64,000 bases of DNA, from assembly GCA_017623215.1 (NCBI GenBank), contig JAGAPO010000014.1, forward strand, positions 243 to 64,242. Reading direction: 5' to 3'. The translations under genes and the position numbers were made by a program. The notes below the pieces were generated by a model. It was not told where the DNA came from. It searched no databases and was given only the letters and a program-made list of their open reading frames with translations. Shown here in pieces: positions 45,217-50,406 of this stretch (positions are counted from its first letter, which is position 1; each line of letters starts with the position of its first letter). This stretch comes from Lachnospiraceae bacterium (GTDB lineage: Bacteria; Bacillota; Clostridia; Lachnospirales; Lachnospiraceae).

Positions 45217-46266
45217 TTAGCCTTCATCCTCGAGATAAGCCGCAATCAGCTTCAGCGTGTTCTCAACACCGTCTCTGTGGCTTCTCTCATACCCGTGCGA
45301 AGCATATACCCCCGGACCAATCAGTCCATGGCGCACATCCGCGCCCGCACGAAGTGTTGCTTCCACATCCGTACCATAATGCGGATAGATATCAACCGCG
45401 TACGAGATTCCGTGCTTCTCGGCAATCTCTGCCATGCGGCTTACCACATCATAATTGTACGGTCCGCCGCTGTCCTTTGCGCAAATCGAAACCTGTCGCT
45501 CCGTACACTGCAGGCCGTCGCCCACGCAGCCCATATCAACCGACCACGCTTCCGTTACCCCTTCCGGACAGGGTGCGCTTCCGCCGTGTCCAACCTCCTC
45601 ATAAATCGTGAAATGCGCATAGATCGCGCGCTTCGGCGTGATTGCCTCGTCTTTTAAATATTTCGCATAGCCTAACAGAATTGCGGAGGAAAGCTTATCA
45701 TCCAGGAACCGGCTCTTGATATAACCGCTCTTTGTAATCCGGGTCCGCGGCTCAAAGCATACATAATCTCCCGGCATAATTCCAAGCGCCTGCACATCCT
45801 TCTTCGACTCTACCGGCTCGTCGATCACAATCTCCACAGTATCCCAGGTACGCTTCGGCCCCGCATAATCATCATTCACATGGACCGAAGCGTTGACCAA
45901 CTGACAGGTTCCCTCATAGCACTTTCCGGAACGGGTCCGAATCCGGCAGTTCTCCGCCTCCGCGTTGCTCGCCTGCATCCCGCCGATATTCGTTACCTTC
46001 AGACGGCCGTTGCCCTTGATCTCATGCACCATCGCTCCCAGCGTATCGCAGTGCGCCTCAAGCAAAAGAGCGTCTTTCTTATTCTCTCCGCCGAATTCCG
46101 CAATCACGCCTCCCTTGACGGTTCGGTATGCTTTCACTCCGAGTGCTGCAAGCTCTGTGAGCAGATATTCTGTTACTTCTCTTCCGTAGCCGGACGGACT
46201 GTCAATCGCAAGCAGGGCTTTTGCCTGCTCCATGGCATAGTCGGTATATATGGTGAAATCCTTCAT
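45217..46266 (-). CDS. M42 family metallopeptidase (aminopeptidase/FrvX-YsdC-like)
   Basis: LLLEAHCDTLGAMV, IYEEVGHGGS, VDIYPHYGTD. Start at ATG 46266, inside repeat copy B. Confidence 0.8.
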   Translation of the reverse strand: MKDFTIYTDYAMEQAKALLAIDSPSGYGREVTEYLLTELAALGVKAYRTVKGGVIAEFGGENKKDALLLEAHCDTLGAMVHEIKGNGRLKVTNIGGMQASNAEAENCRIRTRSGKCYEGTCQLVNASVHVNDDYAGPKRTWDTVEIVIDEPVESKKDVQALGIMPGDYVCFEPRTRITKSGYIKSRFLDDKLSSAILLGYAKYLKDEAITPKRAIYAHFTIYEEVGHGGSAPCPEGVTEAWSVDMGCVGDGLQCTERQVSICAKDSGGPYNYDVVSRMAEIAEKHGISYAVDIYPHYGTDVEATLRAGADVRHGLIGPGVYASHGYERSHRDGVENTLKLIAAYLEDEG

Positions 46267-46306
46267 ACTAATCTCCATTCTGAGAACGTTTTTTGTTCGA
46301 GGAATC
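46264..46306 (-). repeat. 43-nt leader/initiation-region element, copy B
   Basis: The + strand reads catactaatctccattcTgagaacgttttttgttcgaggaatc, 42/43 identical to 1701..1743. Confidence 0.75.
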
Positions 46307-46348
46307 CTTGTGTAATCTGGCTGTGATGCCCCGATATTTTATAGGATT

Positions 46349-46377
46349 AGTATATTTTATTCCACCGCAAATGTCAA
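46349..46377 (-). promoter_or_regulatory. Putative promoter of the M42 peptidase gene
   Basis: Minus strand: TTGACA, 17 nt spacer, TATACT, about 45 nt upstream of repeat copy B. Confidence 0.5.
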
Positions 46378-46415
46378 CCGGACATTGCCGCATCCGCCCG
46401 TATCCGAACTTTTTC

Positions 46416-47351
46416 TTAGTTGTTGAACAAAGGAGTTGACAGGTATCTATCACCGGAATCCGGAAGCAGAACCACGATGGTCTTTCCCTTATTCTCCGGT
46501 CTCTCCGCCAGAATCTTTGCCGCCTTTAAAGCCGCGCCGGACGAGATACCTACAAGAATTCCTTCGCTCACCGCAAATGCTTTGCCTTCTGCAAATGCGT
46601 CTTCATTCTCAATGGTAATTACCTCATCATATATTGCCGTATTCAGTACATCCGGTACAAATCCGGCTCCGATTCCCTGGATCTTGTGTGCACCCGGTGT
46701 ACCCTTTGATAATACCGGGCTGGAAGCCGGCTCCACTGCCACAATCTTCACGCTCGGATTCTTTTCTTTTAAATATTCTCCAACACCGGTAATGGTTCCG
46801 CCCGTGCCTACGCCTGCAACGAAGATATCTACCTTTCCATCCGTCTGCTCCCAGATCTCCGGACCGGTTGTCGCCTTATGTACAGCCGGATTCGCCGGGT
46901 TCACGAACTGTCCAAGGATAACCGAACTCGGGATGGATTCTTTTAATTCCTCGGCTTTCGCGATAGCTCCCTTCATCCCCTTAGCGCCCTCGGTAAGAAC
47001 CAATTCCGCACCATATGCCTTTAAAAGATTTCTTCTTTCCACGCTCATCGTATCAGGCAGGGTCAGAACTGCTTTATATCCTTTTGCTGCAGCAACAGCG
47101 GCAAGACCAATTCCCGTATTACCGCTTGTCGGTTCAATAATCGTTGCCCCTTCCTTCAAAAGTCCCTTCTTCTCCGCATCTTCAATCATCGCAAGGGCAA
47201 TTCTGTCCTTAACGGAACCGGCAGGATTCAGGTATTCCAGCTTCGCAAGGATTGTAGCATCCTTCACCCCGGCCTTCTTTGTATACCCATTCAACTTTAA
47301 TATCGGGGTCTTTCCAATTAACTCTAACGCGCTTTCTTTAATCTGACTCAT
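46416..47351 (-). CDS. cysK: Cysteine synthase A (O-acetylserine sulfhydrylase)
   Basis: PLP-lysine motif [29 protein letters not shown]. 311 aa. GGAGG lies 7 nt upstream of the ATG. Confidence 0.9.
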
Positions 47352-47395
47352 AATCTTACCTCCATAATTTGATTTTGGGCATCCGCCCTGGACTT

Positions 47396-47430
47396 AAAAA
47401 AATAGCAGCTGTCATATGCATGACACCTGC
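47396..47430 (-). terminator. Intrinsic terminator inside the cysK leader (attenuator)
   Basis: Minus strand: GCAGGTGTCAT-gcat-ATGACAGCTGC (11-bp stem, one mismatch) followed by TATTTTTTT. It lies 45 nt upstream of the cysK ATG and downstream of the leader ORF. Confidence 0.65.
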
Positions 47431-47447
47431 TCATCCGTAACATGAAT

Positions 47448-47552
47448 TCAGGTACACAATGCATATGAAAAATAAACCGTATTCATGCATACAGTCTGGC
47501 AGCAACAACACATGATGTCGTATTCCTGATTCGCGGCATTCCTTTTCTTCAT
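47448..47552 (-). CDS. Cys-rich leader peptide MKKRNAANQEYDIMCCCCQTVCMNTVYFSYALCT (34 codons)
   Basis: AAAGGAGA lies about 9 nt upstream of ATG 47552. Codons 15-18 are TGT TGT TGC TGC, with further Cys at codons 22 and 33. The stop TGA is at 47450-47448. Below the 60-aa cutoff of the supplied track. Confidence 0.6.
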   Translation of the reverse strand: MKKRNAANQEYDIMCCCCQTVCMNTVYFSYALCT

Positions 47553-47611
47553 TGCATTGTCTCCTTTCTTCAAAGCCTATCTAATACATAGGTTTTATAT
47601 ATTATATATAG

Positions 47612-47640
47612 ATATTACATCATTATTCCGGTTTTGTCAA
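47612..47640 (-). promoter_or_regulatory. Putative promoter of the cysK leader transcript
   Basis: Minus strand: TTGACA (47640-47635), 17 nt spacer, TAATAT (47617-47612). Confidence 0.55.
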
Positions 47641-47766
47641 CCCTTTTTTTCCCTTTTCATACATCAGGAGAAGCACCCTCAACCGATTCCCTTGAGTGGC
47701 GCTTCTCCTGATGTTAGAACCCTTTTTTCTGCTTTTTATGTCTTTTCGTTTTTACTTTCCTGCTTT

Positions 47767-50406
47767 TTATTTCCCTGCTTTCTTTCCCTTCCTGCTCTCA
47801 TGCTGAATCAATCCAACCGCCTTGGAGACTTCCATCACCACCAGCGGTACCAGGCTTAATCCCAGTCCGGCCAGATACAGCCGGCCCGGAAGCACAATCA
47901 TTCCGAATGCGATTCTCACCGGCGTAAATACAACCAGCGCTACGAGTACAACGGACAGCAGGCAGGCTCCGTTCAGCTTTTTGTTGGTGAACGGGCCAAT
48001 CTTAAATAACGAATGATCGGAACGCATATTGTACGCCTGCACTACCTGCGATAAAGCAAGCACTATGAATGCAAGGGTCTGGCCTCCCGCGGCCTCACCG
48101 GCTATATTTGCACCAAGACGGTAGGCAATCAGAGAAAGCAGACCGAACATGCAGCCCTGCAGCACGACTCGGATGCCAAGACCGTTTGCAAAGATTCCTT
48201 CCTCCTTTGGCTTCGGCTTCTGATCCATGATATCCTTCTCAACCGCCTCCATACCGAGTGCAACCGCCGGAAGGCTGTCCGTCACCAGGTTGATCCATAA
48301 AAGCTGCATGGATAACAGCGGCGTCTCTCTCCACAGAATCATTGCGAAAAATACCGTAAGTACCTCGCCGATATTCGTTCCGAGCAGAAACCCGACTACC
48401 TTTTTGATATTTGCATAGATACCGCGGCCCTCGCGGACTGCGTCAACGATCGTCGCAAAATTATCATCCGTCAGCGTCATATCCGCGGCGCCCTTCGCAA
48501 CGTCAGTTCCGGTAATTCCCATTGCGCAGCCGATATCTGCCGCTTTCAGAGCGGGCGCGTCGTTAACACCGTCACCGGTCATCGAGACAACCTCACCCTT
48601 CTTCTGCCAGGCTTTTACGATTCGGATCTTATTCTCCGGCGATACCCGCGCATATACGGATATCTCTTTTACCTGCTTTTCGAGCTCTCCGTCACTCATG
48701 GCATCCAGCTCGGCTCCCGTAATCGCACGGTCGCCCTCCTGCATGATTCCAAGCTGCTTTGCAATCGCAGATGCGGTTACCACGTGATCGCCCGTTATCA
48801 TAACCGGACGAATTCCGGCCTTGCGGCAGACCTTAACGGCTTCTGCAGCCTCCGGACGAGGCGGGTCAATCATGCCCACAAGTCCGAGGAAGGTAAGTCC
48901 GTTCTCCAATTCCTCGGATGTCGGATTCTCAGGAACCGCAGGAATCTCTTTATAACCAATCGCGAGCACGCGCAGCGCGTTCGAGCTCATCTGATCATTT
49001 AATTCACGCGCTCTGTCCAGATTGCCGGATACGCAGCGGCTCATCATCATATCAAATGCACCCTTAACGATAACAACGTACCGGCCGTCCATCAGATTGA
49101 CCGTGGACATCAATTTGCGATCCGAATCGAATGGAATCTCCGCAAGACGGGGATGCTCTTTGTTCAAAGAATCCTTCGGCATTCCGTTCCGATGCGCGGC
49201 AAAGACAATCGCCGTCTCGGTCGGGTCTCCGATATGCTGCTCCGTATCCCCGTTAAATACAACCGAGCCATCACAGCACAGGGTTCCGTAGGTCAAAAGC
49301 TTCTTAATCTCCGCCGAATTATCCACTCCAATCTTCTCGGTTCCCGTCATCCCGTCCACATAGCCCTCTACCAGGGTCATGCGGTTCTGGGTCAGAGTAC
49401 CGGTCTTATCCGAGCAGATAACCGACGCACTGCCCAATGTCTCAACTGCCGGAAGTCTGCGGATAATGGCGTTCTTCTTAACCATGCGCTGAACGCCGAT
49501 GGACAGCACAATCGTTACGATCGCCGGAAGTCCCTCCGGAATCGCGGATACCGCAAGCGATACTGCTGTCATGAAAATCTCCATCACATGCATTCCGCTC
49601 ATAATTCCGACCACGAAGATAACCGCACAGGCAGCAAGCGCTACGAAGCCGAGGTATTTGCCAAGGCTGGCAAGCTTCTTCTGCAGAGGCGTCTGAGTAT
49701 CCGTCTCTCCCTCAAGGAGATTTGCGATCTTACCCATCTCTGTGTTCATTCCCGTCGCAGTAACAACTGCTGCCGCAGTTCCATAGGTAATACTGCAGCC
49801 CGAGAATACCATATTGGTTCGGTCACCGACTCCCGCATCCTCTTTTACCTCGGTCTCCGCATCCTTCTCGGACGGAACCGATTCTCCGGTCAGCGCGGAT
49901 TCTTCCGACTTCAGGCTGGCCGAACGAAGGAGTCTTGCGTCCGCCGGGATGAAATCACCGGCTTCCAGTCTGATAATATCGCCCGGAACCAACAGCGCGG
50001 CATCAATCACCTGCTCCTTACCGTCACGAATAACTCTTGCGTGCGGAGCCGATAGGCTTTTGAGCGCGTCAAGCGCTTTTTCCGCCTTGCTCTCCTGCAT
50101 CACGCCCATAATTGCATTCATGACGACAATCAGCAGAATCAATACCGGTTCAAAGAACTCTTTCGGTTCTCCTTCGTAGCAGGCTACCACGAACGAGACA
50201 ATCGCCGCGGCAATCAGGATCATAATCATGACATCCTTGAATTGCTCCAGGAACCTTTGCAGGTTCGTCTTCTTTTTCTTCTCTTTCAGCTTGTTCTCTC
50301 CGTATTCCGCAAGCCGCTTCTTTGCATCCGCTTCGGAAAGTCCGGTGCCCAGGCTGGTCTCAAGCGCCGTAAGCACTTCCGCTTTTTTTGCACTGTGGTA
50401 TAACAA
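47767..50406 (-). CDS. Calcium-translocating P-type ATPase (PMCA/SERCA-like, P2 type)
   Basis: [13 protein letters not shown] phosphorylation motif, [26 protein letters not shown]. 879 aa with about 10 TM helices. TTG start at 50406 with AGGAGG 10 nt upstream. Confidence 0.9.

Follow-up and report, generated by a model that had tools for sequence, protein, structure and literature searches.

A predicted cysteine-sensing leader-peptide attenuator upstream of cysK in Lachnospiraceae

The cysK leader and its recurrence

In a Lachnospiraceae bacterium (GenBank contig JAGAPO010000014.1), the cysteine synthase gene cysK is preceded by a promoter, a short open reading frame (ORF) with a run of cysteine codons, and an intrinsic terminator, an arrangement that points to transcription attenuation by a leader peptide. 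The stretch of DNA analyzed here, called the window, covers 64 kilobases (kb) of this contig; all leader elements and cysK itself are read on its minus strand (Table 1). The product of cysK scores 454.7 bits with the TIGR01139 equivalog model, for which the cut-off is 350.95. An earlier note on this DNA had read the leader as a classical attenuator, and the promoter, ribosome-binding site, 34-codon ORF and terminator are all found at the minus-strand coordinates that it claimed, as is the block of four cysteine codons (CCCC) at 47510-47499. This run, TGTTGTTGCTGC, is the sole run of at least four TGY codons across the window. Neither a second leader copy nor an Rrf2 gene was found in the 64 kb.

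Transcription would start near 47605, about 7 nucleotides (nt) past the TAATAT box. With the -10 box ending at 47612 and the ATG at 47552, the leader has a 5' untranslated region of about 50 nt that carries a strong Shine-Dalgarno sequence (SD); an in-frame TTG at 47573 offers an alternative start, with a product of 41 amino acids. Equivalent promoter positions are seen in related loci. In the window, a consensus scan detected no further promoter in the interval from the terminator to cysK.

Table 1. Elements of the cysK leader locus, in window coordinates
Feature	Coordinates	Strand	Remarks
Sigma-A-type promoter, TTGACA-17-TAATAT	47612-47640	minus	From sequence and consensus scan, 10/12 matches
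Palindrome CCTAT-N7-ATAGG	47576-47592		Directly 3' of the -10 box
Leader SD, AAAGGAG	47561-47567	minus	8 nt before the ATG at 47552
Region A: leader initiation region (SD, ATG, first codons)	47541-47567	minus	Pairs with the 3' end of the ORF
Leader ORF, 34 codons plus stop, MKKRNAANQEYDIMCCCCQTVCMNTVYFSYALCT	47448-47552	minus	TGA stop at 47450-47448
Cysteine run TGTTGTTGCTGC, UGU UGU UGC UGC, codons 15-18	47499-47510	minus	Proposed sensor of Cys-tRNA(Cys) supply
Hairpin B, AGACUGUAU-GCAUGA-AUACGGUUU, then U-rich stretch	47474-47497	minus	-7.9 kcal/mol
Region C: antiterminator 5' strand, UCAUAUGCAU...ACCUG	47449-47468	minus	Shares sequence with the final codons and the stop
Antiterminator 3' strand (terminator 5' arm and loop)	47412-47429	minus	Complementary to region C
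Intrinsic terminator hairpin GCAGGTGTCAT-GCAT-ATGACAGCTGC	47405-47430	minus	Stem-loop
Terminator U-tract TATTTTTTT	47396-47404	minus	44 nt before the cysK ATG at 47351
cysK, cysteine synthase A (O-acetylserine sulfhydrylase), proposed regulated gene	46416-47351	minus	NCBIfam TIGR01139

Could the leader belong to a known class of regulatory RNA? In Firmicutes, a phylum in which leader peptides are rare, textbooks place sulfur amino-acid genes under T-box, S-box and CymR control. Rfam 15 was searched at E≤10 over 46000-48200 and at the gathering threshold over the whole window, and in neither range was there a match, be it to the T-box covariance model, to SAM (S-box) or to any other riboswitch. 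The earlier note, which had seen no T-box or S-box motifs in the leader, was right on this point. In 20 related loci that lack the leader, Rfam likewise detected no T-box or riboswitch upstream of cysK.

Is the leader an isolated occurrence? For comparison, 80 cysK loci were found via CysK, one genome per species and mostly from Lachnospiraceae; the closest relatives belong to that family and show CysK identities of 91-92% (maximum 92%). About 10 of the 80 carry an ATG-started short ORF with at least three consecutive cysteine codons 80-230 nt upstream (L003, L014, L012, L037, L004, L010, L034, L051 and L072, together with L008, in which the cysteine codons are scattered). The background rate of (TGY)3 runs, 0.12 per kb per strand over about 1 megabase of related loci, predicts about 3 such runs in the 300 nt preceding cysK, summed over 80 loci; the number observed is about 10, and every one falls in a short ORF that begins with ATG. 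The complete order of promoter, SD and ORF with cysteine run, terminator, and cysK recurs in L003, L014, L012, L037, L034, L051 and L072. Three of these leaders (L051, L072 and L034) are unrelated in sequence to that of the window and have in common with it only the logic of a cysteine-run ORF followed by a terminator. Thus the short ORFs with cysteine runs that an alignment of related cysK upstream regions had been proposed to reveal are indeed conserved in related Clostridia, together with the SD, the ATG and the terminator. A peptide search added four homologues, MKKIAAVYEKNFMMCCCCQTVCMNTVYFSYALCT and three others, that retain the C-run and the C-terminal NTVYFSYALC.

Metagenomes hold many more copies. 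A DNA pattern scan matched at least 120 contigs, many of them from human-gut assemblies, and at least about 105 of these copies are true family members, at least 83 with cysK downstream; about 12 of the 120 matches listed lay by chance inside coding or eukaryote-like sequence and were discarded. Family 1, the group of the window leader, is represented by at least 45 unique sequences, mostly micro-variants of one gut species. The leader family is also present in the cultured strains [Clostridium] aerotolerans DSM 5434 and Lacrimispora algidixylanolytica SPL73.

Not all copies precede cysK. At least about 20 metagenome copies of the variant MGMCCCCCQTVWMNTVYFSYA lie upstream of a monocistronic Rrf2-family gene (L084, L099, L129, L137 and others) that scores equally, and below the cut-off, with the NCBIfam models for CymR and IscR. 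The Rrf2 regulator may itself be under Cys-tRNA control. Its gene stands about 230 nt past the cysteine leader and terminator and is followed by spoIIIA genes; it seems to have a promoter of its own, overlapped by a CCTAT-like site. In L203 (130-2377), a longer leader of 43 amino acids, with CCCC, precedes a GST_C_2-domain gene and a gene for a substrate-binding protein whose best, sub-threshold match is a cystine ABC transporter binding protein. Hence the leader occurs beyond cysK alone, and since its copies precede cysK, Rrf2 and GST-like/binding-protein genes, the element marks a small cysteine-related regulon.

Codon constraint and alternative pairings

Is the leader ORF constrained as a coding sequence, as RNA, or as both? 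Codons and helices were analyzed in an alignment of 14 family-1 members, all of which retain the SD, the ATG and the reading frame. Three zones differ sharply in their diversity at codon positions 1, 2 and 3. The N-terminal spacer is variable at all of them (0.48/0.59/0.64) and constant in length, at 14-17 codons. The cysteine codons are nearly fixed at the first two positions and free at the third (0.07/0.07/0.38), where only T and C are exchanged. In the segment past the cysteine run, all three positions are conserved (0.09/0.17/0.19), and the constraint there must therefore act on nucleotides and not on the peptide. Insertions and deletions within the ORF are always multiples of three, the stop codon is maintained, and several members of the family end directly past FSYA. 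The run itself varies from 3 to 6 codons across the family, even between close relatives (6 in L171, 5 in L193, 3 in L172). The earlier note had made its reading depend on conservation of the run, and conserved it is: its codons vary only synonymously and its length shifts by whole codons. This codon signature, together with the whole-codon changes in run length, speaks for a translated sensor ORF whose 3' half doubles as regulatory RNA. The pattern argues against a functional micropeptide as well as against an untranslated riboswitch.

The whole window leader folds better than its shuffled versions (z = -3.7; 0 of 200 shuffles as stable). Its terminator hairpin has a predicted energy of -13.6 to -15.9 kcal/mol (RNAfold); the stem contains one G.G mismatch, and a simple consensus scan therefore missed it. 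Across the 14-sequence alignment, 99% of the cells of the terminator stem are paired, 5 pairs have changed on both sides, and the hairpin is part of the RNAalifold consensus. A hairpin with U-tract is present in 20 of 22 representatives, at a distance from the gene that varies between loci from 44 nt to more than 200 nt. The terminator loop, ATGCATATGA, is conserved while the stem covaries freely, which is to be expected if the loop must pair with region C.

Region C, in which the ORF ends, can pair without a mismatch with 47421-47412 and 47429-47425 (10 + 5 base pairs), and the antiterminator helix that had been claimed, UCAUAUGCAU/AUGCAUAUGA plus ACCUG/CAGGU, is thus correct to the letter. 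The antiterminator segment has a predicted energy of -21.4 kcal/mol, compared with -13.6 kcal/mol for the terminator hairpin alone. In its core of 10 base pairs, 90% of the alignment cells are paired and the sequences are near invariant, with one compensatory change of A-U to G-C in L203. Between the cysteine run and region C lies hairpin B, a feature absent from the earlier note, as are its U-rich stretch, the palindrome after the -10 box, and the pairing of region A with region C described below. Hairpin B is paired in 94% of cells, with one-sided changes only; it was predicted independently by RNAalifold and occurs also in subfamily 2 (see below).

A further long-range helix joins the two ends of the ORF. 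In the window, region A pairs with 47480-47449 in a duplex of -20 to -25 kcal/mol (the A:C duplex). In this register 73% of cells are paired and 5 pairs have changed on both sides, a covariation score reached by 0 of 500 shuffles. The pairing exists in 14 of 14 family-1 members, with sequences that differ from one to the next (ACAAUG/CAUUGU, GAUCAUG/CAUGAU, GCUAUG/CAUAGC), and also in the unrelated leaders L051 and L072, where it reaches -33 kcal/mol; its overall range is -12 to -33 kcal/mol. Compared with dinucleotide shuffles, the duplex energies are convincing for this helix between the SD/AUG and the end of the ORF, and weak for the antiterminator. Region A would accordingly be the anti-antiterminator, an unusual use of a leader's own SD and AUG.

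An out-of-frame ORF of two codons, ATGCAATGA (AUG CAA UGA; 47549-47557, minus strand), overlaps the leader start codon. The AUGNNAUGA arrangement at the leader start recurs in L201, L003, L082, L133 and L014, and takes the form GUGCUAUGA in L202. This mini-ORF may exist simply because the start region has to pair with CAUUGU where the leader ORF ends.

A sister subfamily solves the same problem differently. In subfamily 2 (the Lacrimispora type; L012, L037, L171-L193), the last cysteine codons, UGUUGUCAGGC, pair with GCCUGACAGC past the stop codon in a 1:2 helix of -14 to -24 kcal/mol, the GCCUGACAGC segment pairs alternatively with the 5' arm and loop of the terminator in a 2:3 helix of -17 to -22 kcal/mol, and the terminator forms the 3:4 helix. 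The inner part of the 2:3 helix and the loop of the terminator change together (UGCCAUUU/AAAGUGGCA in L012, UGCUUAUUAUG/CGUAAUAGGCA in L171). By its predicted helices, subfamily 2 is a textbook 1:2, 2:3, 3:4 attenuator, and it supplies the clearest evidence for an antiterminator. The two sister subfamilies would hence differ in their anti-antiterminator, for which the window's group uses the SD/AUG region and subfamily 2 the cysteine-codon region.

Proposed mechanism and rival explanations

We estimate at about 80% the probability that the leader is a ribosome-mediated transcription attenuator, one that responds to how much Cys-tRNA(Cys) is available and so governs read-through into cysK. The parts, their conservation and their mutually exclusive pairings are those shown above; the order of events is what we infer from them. 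After transcription has started, a ribosome would load on the SD and AUG of the 34-codon leader. Hairpin B with its U-rich tail is a speculative candidate for a pause site that would hold RNA polymerase until this ribosome arrives. When Cys-tRNA is ample, the ribosome would reach the UGA in region C and mask this region, the terminator would form and the transcript would end near 47396; the earlier note had assigned this role to a terminating ribosome, and the stop codon does sit within the 5' strand of the antiterminator. When Cys-tRNA is scarce, the ribosome would stall at codons 15-18, with the 5' arm of hairpin B inside it, and leave region C free to pair with the emerging 5' arm and loop of the terminator. 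The antiterminator (-21 kcal/mol, compared with -14 to -16 for the terminator) would then allow RNA polymerase to read through into cysK. If the leader is not translated, region A would pair with region C and the terminator would be free to form, so that the default state is off; the same pairing would also close the ribosome-binding site of the leader once the 3' end of the ORF has been made. The stalled state requires that region A be occupied, possibly by a second ribosome queued on it at the distance set by the 14-17-codon spacer, which is speculation on our part. The palindrome probably adds control by a repressor at the promoter.

Several observations weigh against this mechanism. About 85% of the related cysK loci have no such leader, and in L004, L008 and L010 the cysteine-rich leader ORFs (MRHRKRMCCCSKGRC; MKRKLKTTSCMMQRCYCRTGCRKAVCFSMCCGAMQQ; MQNKKMTMRCCCRCCSTYE) are not followed by a convincing intrinsic terminator (weak or none in L004 and L010); these leaders may act translationally or via Rho. 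Support for the family-1 antiterminator comes mostly from conservation and not from covariation, and 188 of 500 shuffles reach the observed pairing. Its energies stand at z of about -1 to -2 relative to dinucleotide shuffles, and above 0 in the group of L100, L116, L125 and L143. In principle, the A:C helix might prevail over the antiterminator during a stall, an objection to which the queued ribosome is a conjectural answer. Finally, in folding with the leader masked, the check that had been suggested for the attenuator, equilibrium folds of the full leader nearly always keep the terminator, whether a ribosome is placed at the cysteine run, at the stop codon, or nowhere.

Since equilibrium folding favors the terminator, the proposed switch must work kinetically, like that of the trp leader; equilibrium folds say little about such a switch, and the case for it is a comparative one. 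For transcripts cut just before the 3' arm of the terminator, 22 of 23 leaders show a more sequestered 5' arm when the ribosome is at the cysteine run than when it is at the stop codon, in agreement with the model. The separation is modest, with mean sequestration of 0.69 in the former and 0.44 in the latter state, and is partly an effect of length; in family 1, the competing structure amounts to -12 to -33 and -2 to -7 kcal/mol, respectively.

Does the group of the window leader constitute a structurally distinct type of attenuator? Such a device would read the queuing of ribosomes, would shut down both leader translation and cysK when the leader is untranslated, and would form a two-input circuit with the palindrome. 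We regard this extension of the attenuator model as tentative and rather doubtful. If true, a repressor signal and the charging of Cys-tRNA would be combined at one gene, and in those species in which the same leader controls the CymR/IscR-like Rrf2 gene, tRNA charging would feed back on the level of the repressor.

Could control be exerted mainly on translation instead? In the mycobacterial polycysteine ORFs, for which translational attenuation is documented (bioRxiv 10.1101/834739), and in ermC, it is translation of the downstream gene that responds; by analogy, a stalled ribosome would expose the ribosome-binding site of cysK, and the terminator would play a minor part. The cysteine-rich leaders without a convincing terminator (L004, L008, L010) fit this explanation, as does the small helix that holds part of the cysK SD in the minimum-free-energy fold of the window leader. 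In the predicted folds, however, the cysteine run is unpaired with the cysK SD; a strong, covarying hairpin with U-tract stands between leader and gene, in the window as in 20 of 22 representatives; and the variable distance between terminator and gene (44 to more than 200 nt) is unlike that of a conserved SD-sequestering helix. We consider a mainly translational control improbable.

A metabolite- or protein-binding riboswitch, responding to O-acetylserine, cysteine or an RNA-binding protein and containing the ORF only incidentally, would also present itself as conserved, structured RNA with alternative terminator and antiterminator pairings, and the lack of a match to any known family is what an undiscovered riboswitch would give. 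Its strong structures, however, are simple hairpins, and RNAalifold reveals no multi-helix junction or core resembling a ligand pocket. Neither the retention of SD, ATG, frame and stop across indels of multiples of three, nor cysteine codons that change only between T and C at the wobble position, would be expected of an incidental ORF; nor would the sharing, by the unrelated L051, L072 and L034, of nothing but a cysteine-run ORF and a terminator. This makes a riboswitch very unlikely.

The palindrome raises the question of a repressor. The motif, CCTAY-N7-RTAGG, follows the -10 box closely and has an invariable span of 17 nt. Of the 80 related loci, 43 have it in the 350 nt before cysK (47 matches, 2.8 expected), upstream of the leader where there is one and close to cysK where there is none; the single copy in the window is not above chance by itself. 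In the alignment, 95% of its cells are paired and 2 pairs have changed on both sides. It could form a 5' RNA hairpin, but because its spacing is fixed and the motif is present in leaderless promoters, a protein operator is favored. The palindrome is probably the operator for a repressor of the cysteine regulon, possibly of the Rrf2/CymR type. It may resemble the CymR box of Bacillus subtilis. Its position suggests that repressor control coexists with attenuation at cysK.

Might the repressor be essentially the only control, and leader and terminator a neutral leftover or one in decay? Many more loci have the palindrome than have the leader (43 versus about 10 of the 80), and the leaderless L002 apparently retains just a vestige of the terminator stem. 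Against this, purifying selection has clearly maintained the leader family's cysteine codons, frame, terminator pairs and complementary segments in many lineages, its copies abound in metagenomes, and control by repressor and by leader are compatible; we hold control by the repressor alone to be highly unlikely.

In L002, whose CysK is 92% identical to that of the window, the palindrome and an inverted repeat, TGTCATA...TATGACAG, are found about 30-90 nt upstream of cysK. The repeat resembles the inner stem of the window terminator and is accompanied by neither a short ORF nor a U-tract. L002 may carry a decayed attenuator.

Least probable of all is that the ORF encodes a functional cysteine-rich micropeptide (metal- or redox-active, or the precursor of a RiPP, a peptide made on ribosomes and modified after translation), with the hairpin as its terminator and cysK transcribed separately: the C-terminal NTVYFSYALC is well conserved as a peptide, and L201 has a radical-SAM gene as the second gene downstream of cysK, but this neighbor occurs in one locus only, the N-terminal half is hypervariable, the conserved part is under RNA constraint at all codon positions, the C-run varies from 3 to 6 among close relatives and several members stop right past FSYA, the unit always stands directly upstream of a cysteine-related gene on the same strand, and no separate cysK promoter was found in the window past the terminator.

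As to the genes around the attenuator and cysK, an 879-amino-acid P-type ATPase is encoded upstream of the cysK promoter (50406-47767). Directly 3' of its gene lies an inverted repeat of about 16 base pairs, CATCAGGAGAAGCGCC ... GGTGCTTCTCCTGATG (47661-47713, minus strand), with no clear U-tract, presumably the terminator of the ATPase gene, insulating the cysK promoter. In the 137-nt gap 3' of cysK, a promoter, TTGACA-17-TATACT (11/12 matches; 46349-46377, minus strand), precedes an ORF for a peptidase-like protein of 353 amino acids (46278-45217). Because this near-perfect promoter follows it, cysK is probably monocistronic; no terminator was detected between cysK and the peptidase-like ORF.

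Significance and comparison with known systems

Judged by its sequence features, the leader represents a previously uncatalogued family of ribosome-mediated transcription attenuators, in which amino acid, phylum and architecture are new and the mechanism is classical. To our knowledge, cysteine is the one common amino acid without a demonstrated classical, terminator-based leader-peptide attenuator. No description of a cysteine leader-peptide attenuator in Firmicutes or upstream of cysK was found in the full-text literature, subscription journals being outside its coverage, and an earlier report is possible. The family would fill this gap, terminator-based attenuation by a cysteine leader, in the Lachnospiraceae, a major group of the human gut, and its carriage by cultured strains makes direct testing possible. 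The two anti-antiterminator solutions of the sister subfamilies inform the evolution of attenuators. Genome annotation would gain as well, as leader ORFs of 30-40 codons are sometimes called hypothetical proteins, and in anaerobes the leader could be put to use as a compact genetic part that responds to cysteine.

How does the family compare with established attenuators? With the trp, his, leu, thr, ilv and pheA attenuators of Proteobacteria it shares a terminator before a biosynthetic gene, alternative antiterminator and anti-antiterminator pairings, and a stop codon so placed that a ribosome terminating there covers the strand of the antiterminator. Subfamily 2 (L012, L037, L171) resembles them further in that its 1:2 helix includes the regulatory codons. 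Unlike in the classical systems, the amino acid sensed would be cysteine, the hosts are Lachnospiraceae (Firmicutes), a single gene, cysK, would be regulated, and there is no relationship by sequence or in Rfam. In the window's subfamily, moreover, the anti-antiterminator strand would be the SD/AUG region of the leader and not the region of the regulatory codons.

Cysteine-codon leaders have been noted in other phyla. Those predicted in Actinobacteria lack terminators (Seliverstov et al. 2005, PMC1262725). The leaderless polycysteine short ORFs of mycobacteria were shown to attenuate translationally in a study that describes attenuation mediated by upstream open reading frames (uORFs) as previously undescribed for cysteine (Canestrari et al. 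2020, bioRxiv 10.1101/834739). They share with the window leader the consecutive cysteine codons upstream of cysteine-biosynthesis genes, and release attenuation in a cysteine-responsive manner; they have no SD, unmask a downstream SD and lack an intrinsic terminator, whereas the window leader has both an SD and a covarying terminator. Closest in type is uORFC-8-2, a computationally predicted, terminator-type cysteine leader upstream of cysS in Rhodobacterales (Brewer et al. 2021, PMC8632094). Compared by the text description of its consensus, it has tandem cysteine codons, a terminator stem and a U-run in common with the leader described here, and its cysteine codons come at about peptide positions 14-15, a placement like that given by the 14-codon spacer in the window. 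It differs in its host group (Alphaproteobacteria), in its gene (cysS, not cysK) and in its 2 cysteine codons instead of 3-6. These codons are part of its first stem, unlike those of the window's subfamily, which lie outside any stem in predicted folds and in the RNAalifold consensus.

Within the Firmicutes, the combination of leader peptide and terminator exists alongside T-boxes in the His leader of hisS/hisZ paralogues in Bacilli (Naville and Gautheret 2010, PMC2965389) and in the Leu-rich attenuator peptide of Staphylococcus aureus ilv (PMC5794164); these are of the type proposed for the window leader and concern other amino acids, genes and lineages. The function under control, cysK and cysteine uptake, is the one regulated by T-box(Cys), S-box and CymR in Bacilli and Clostridium. 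The T-box, too, reads tRNA charging through the choice between terminator and antiterminator, but it does so by direct binding of the tRNA, whereas the window leader would sense charging through the translating ribosome.

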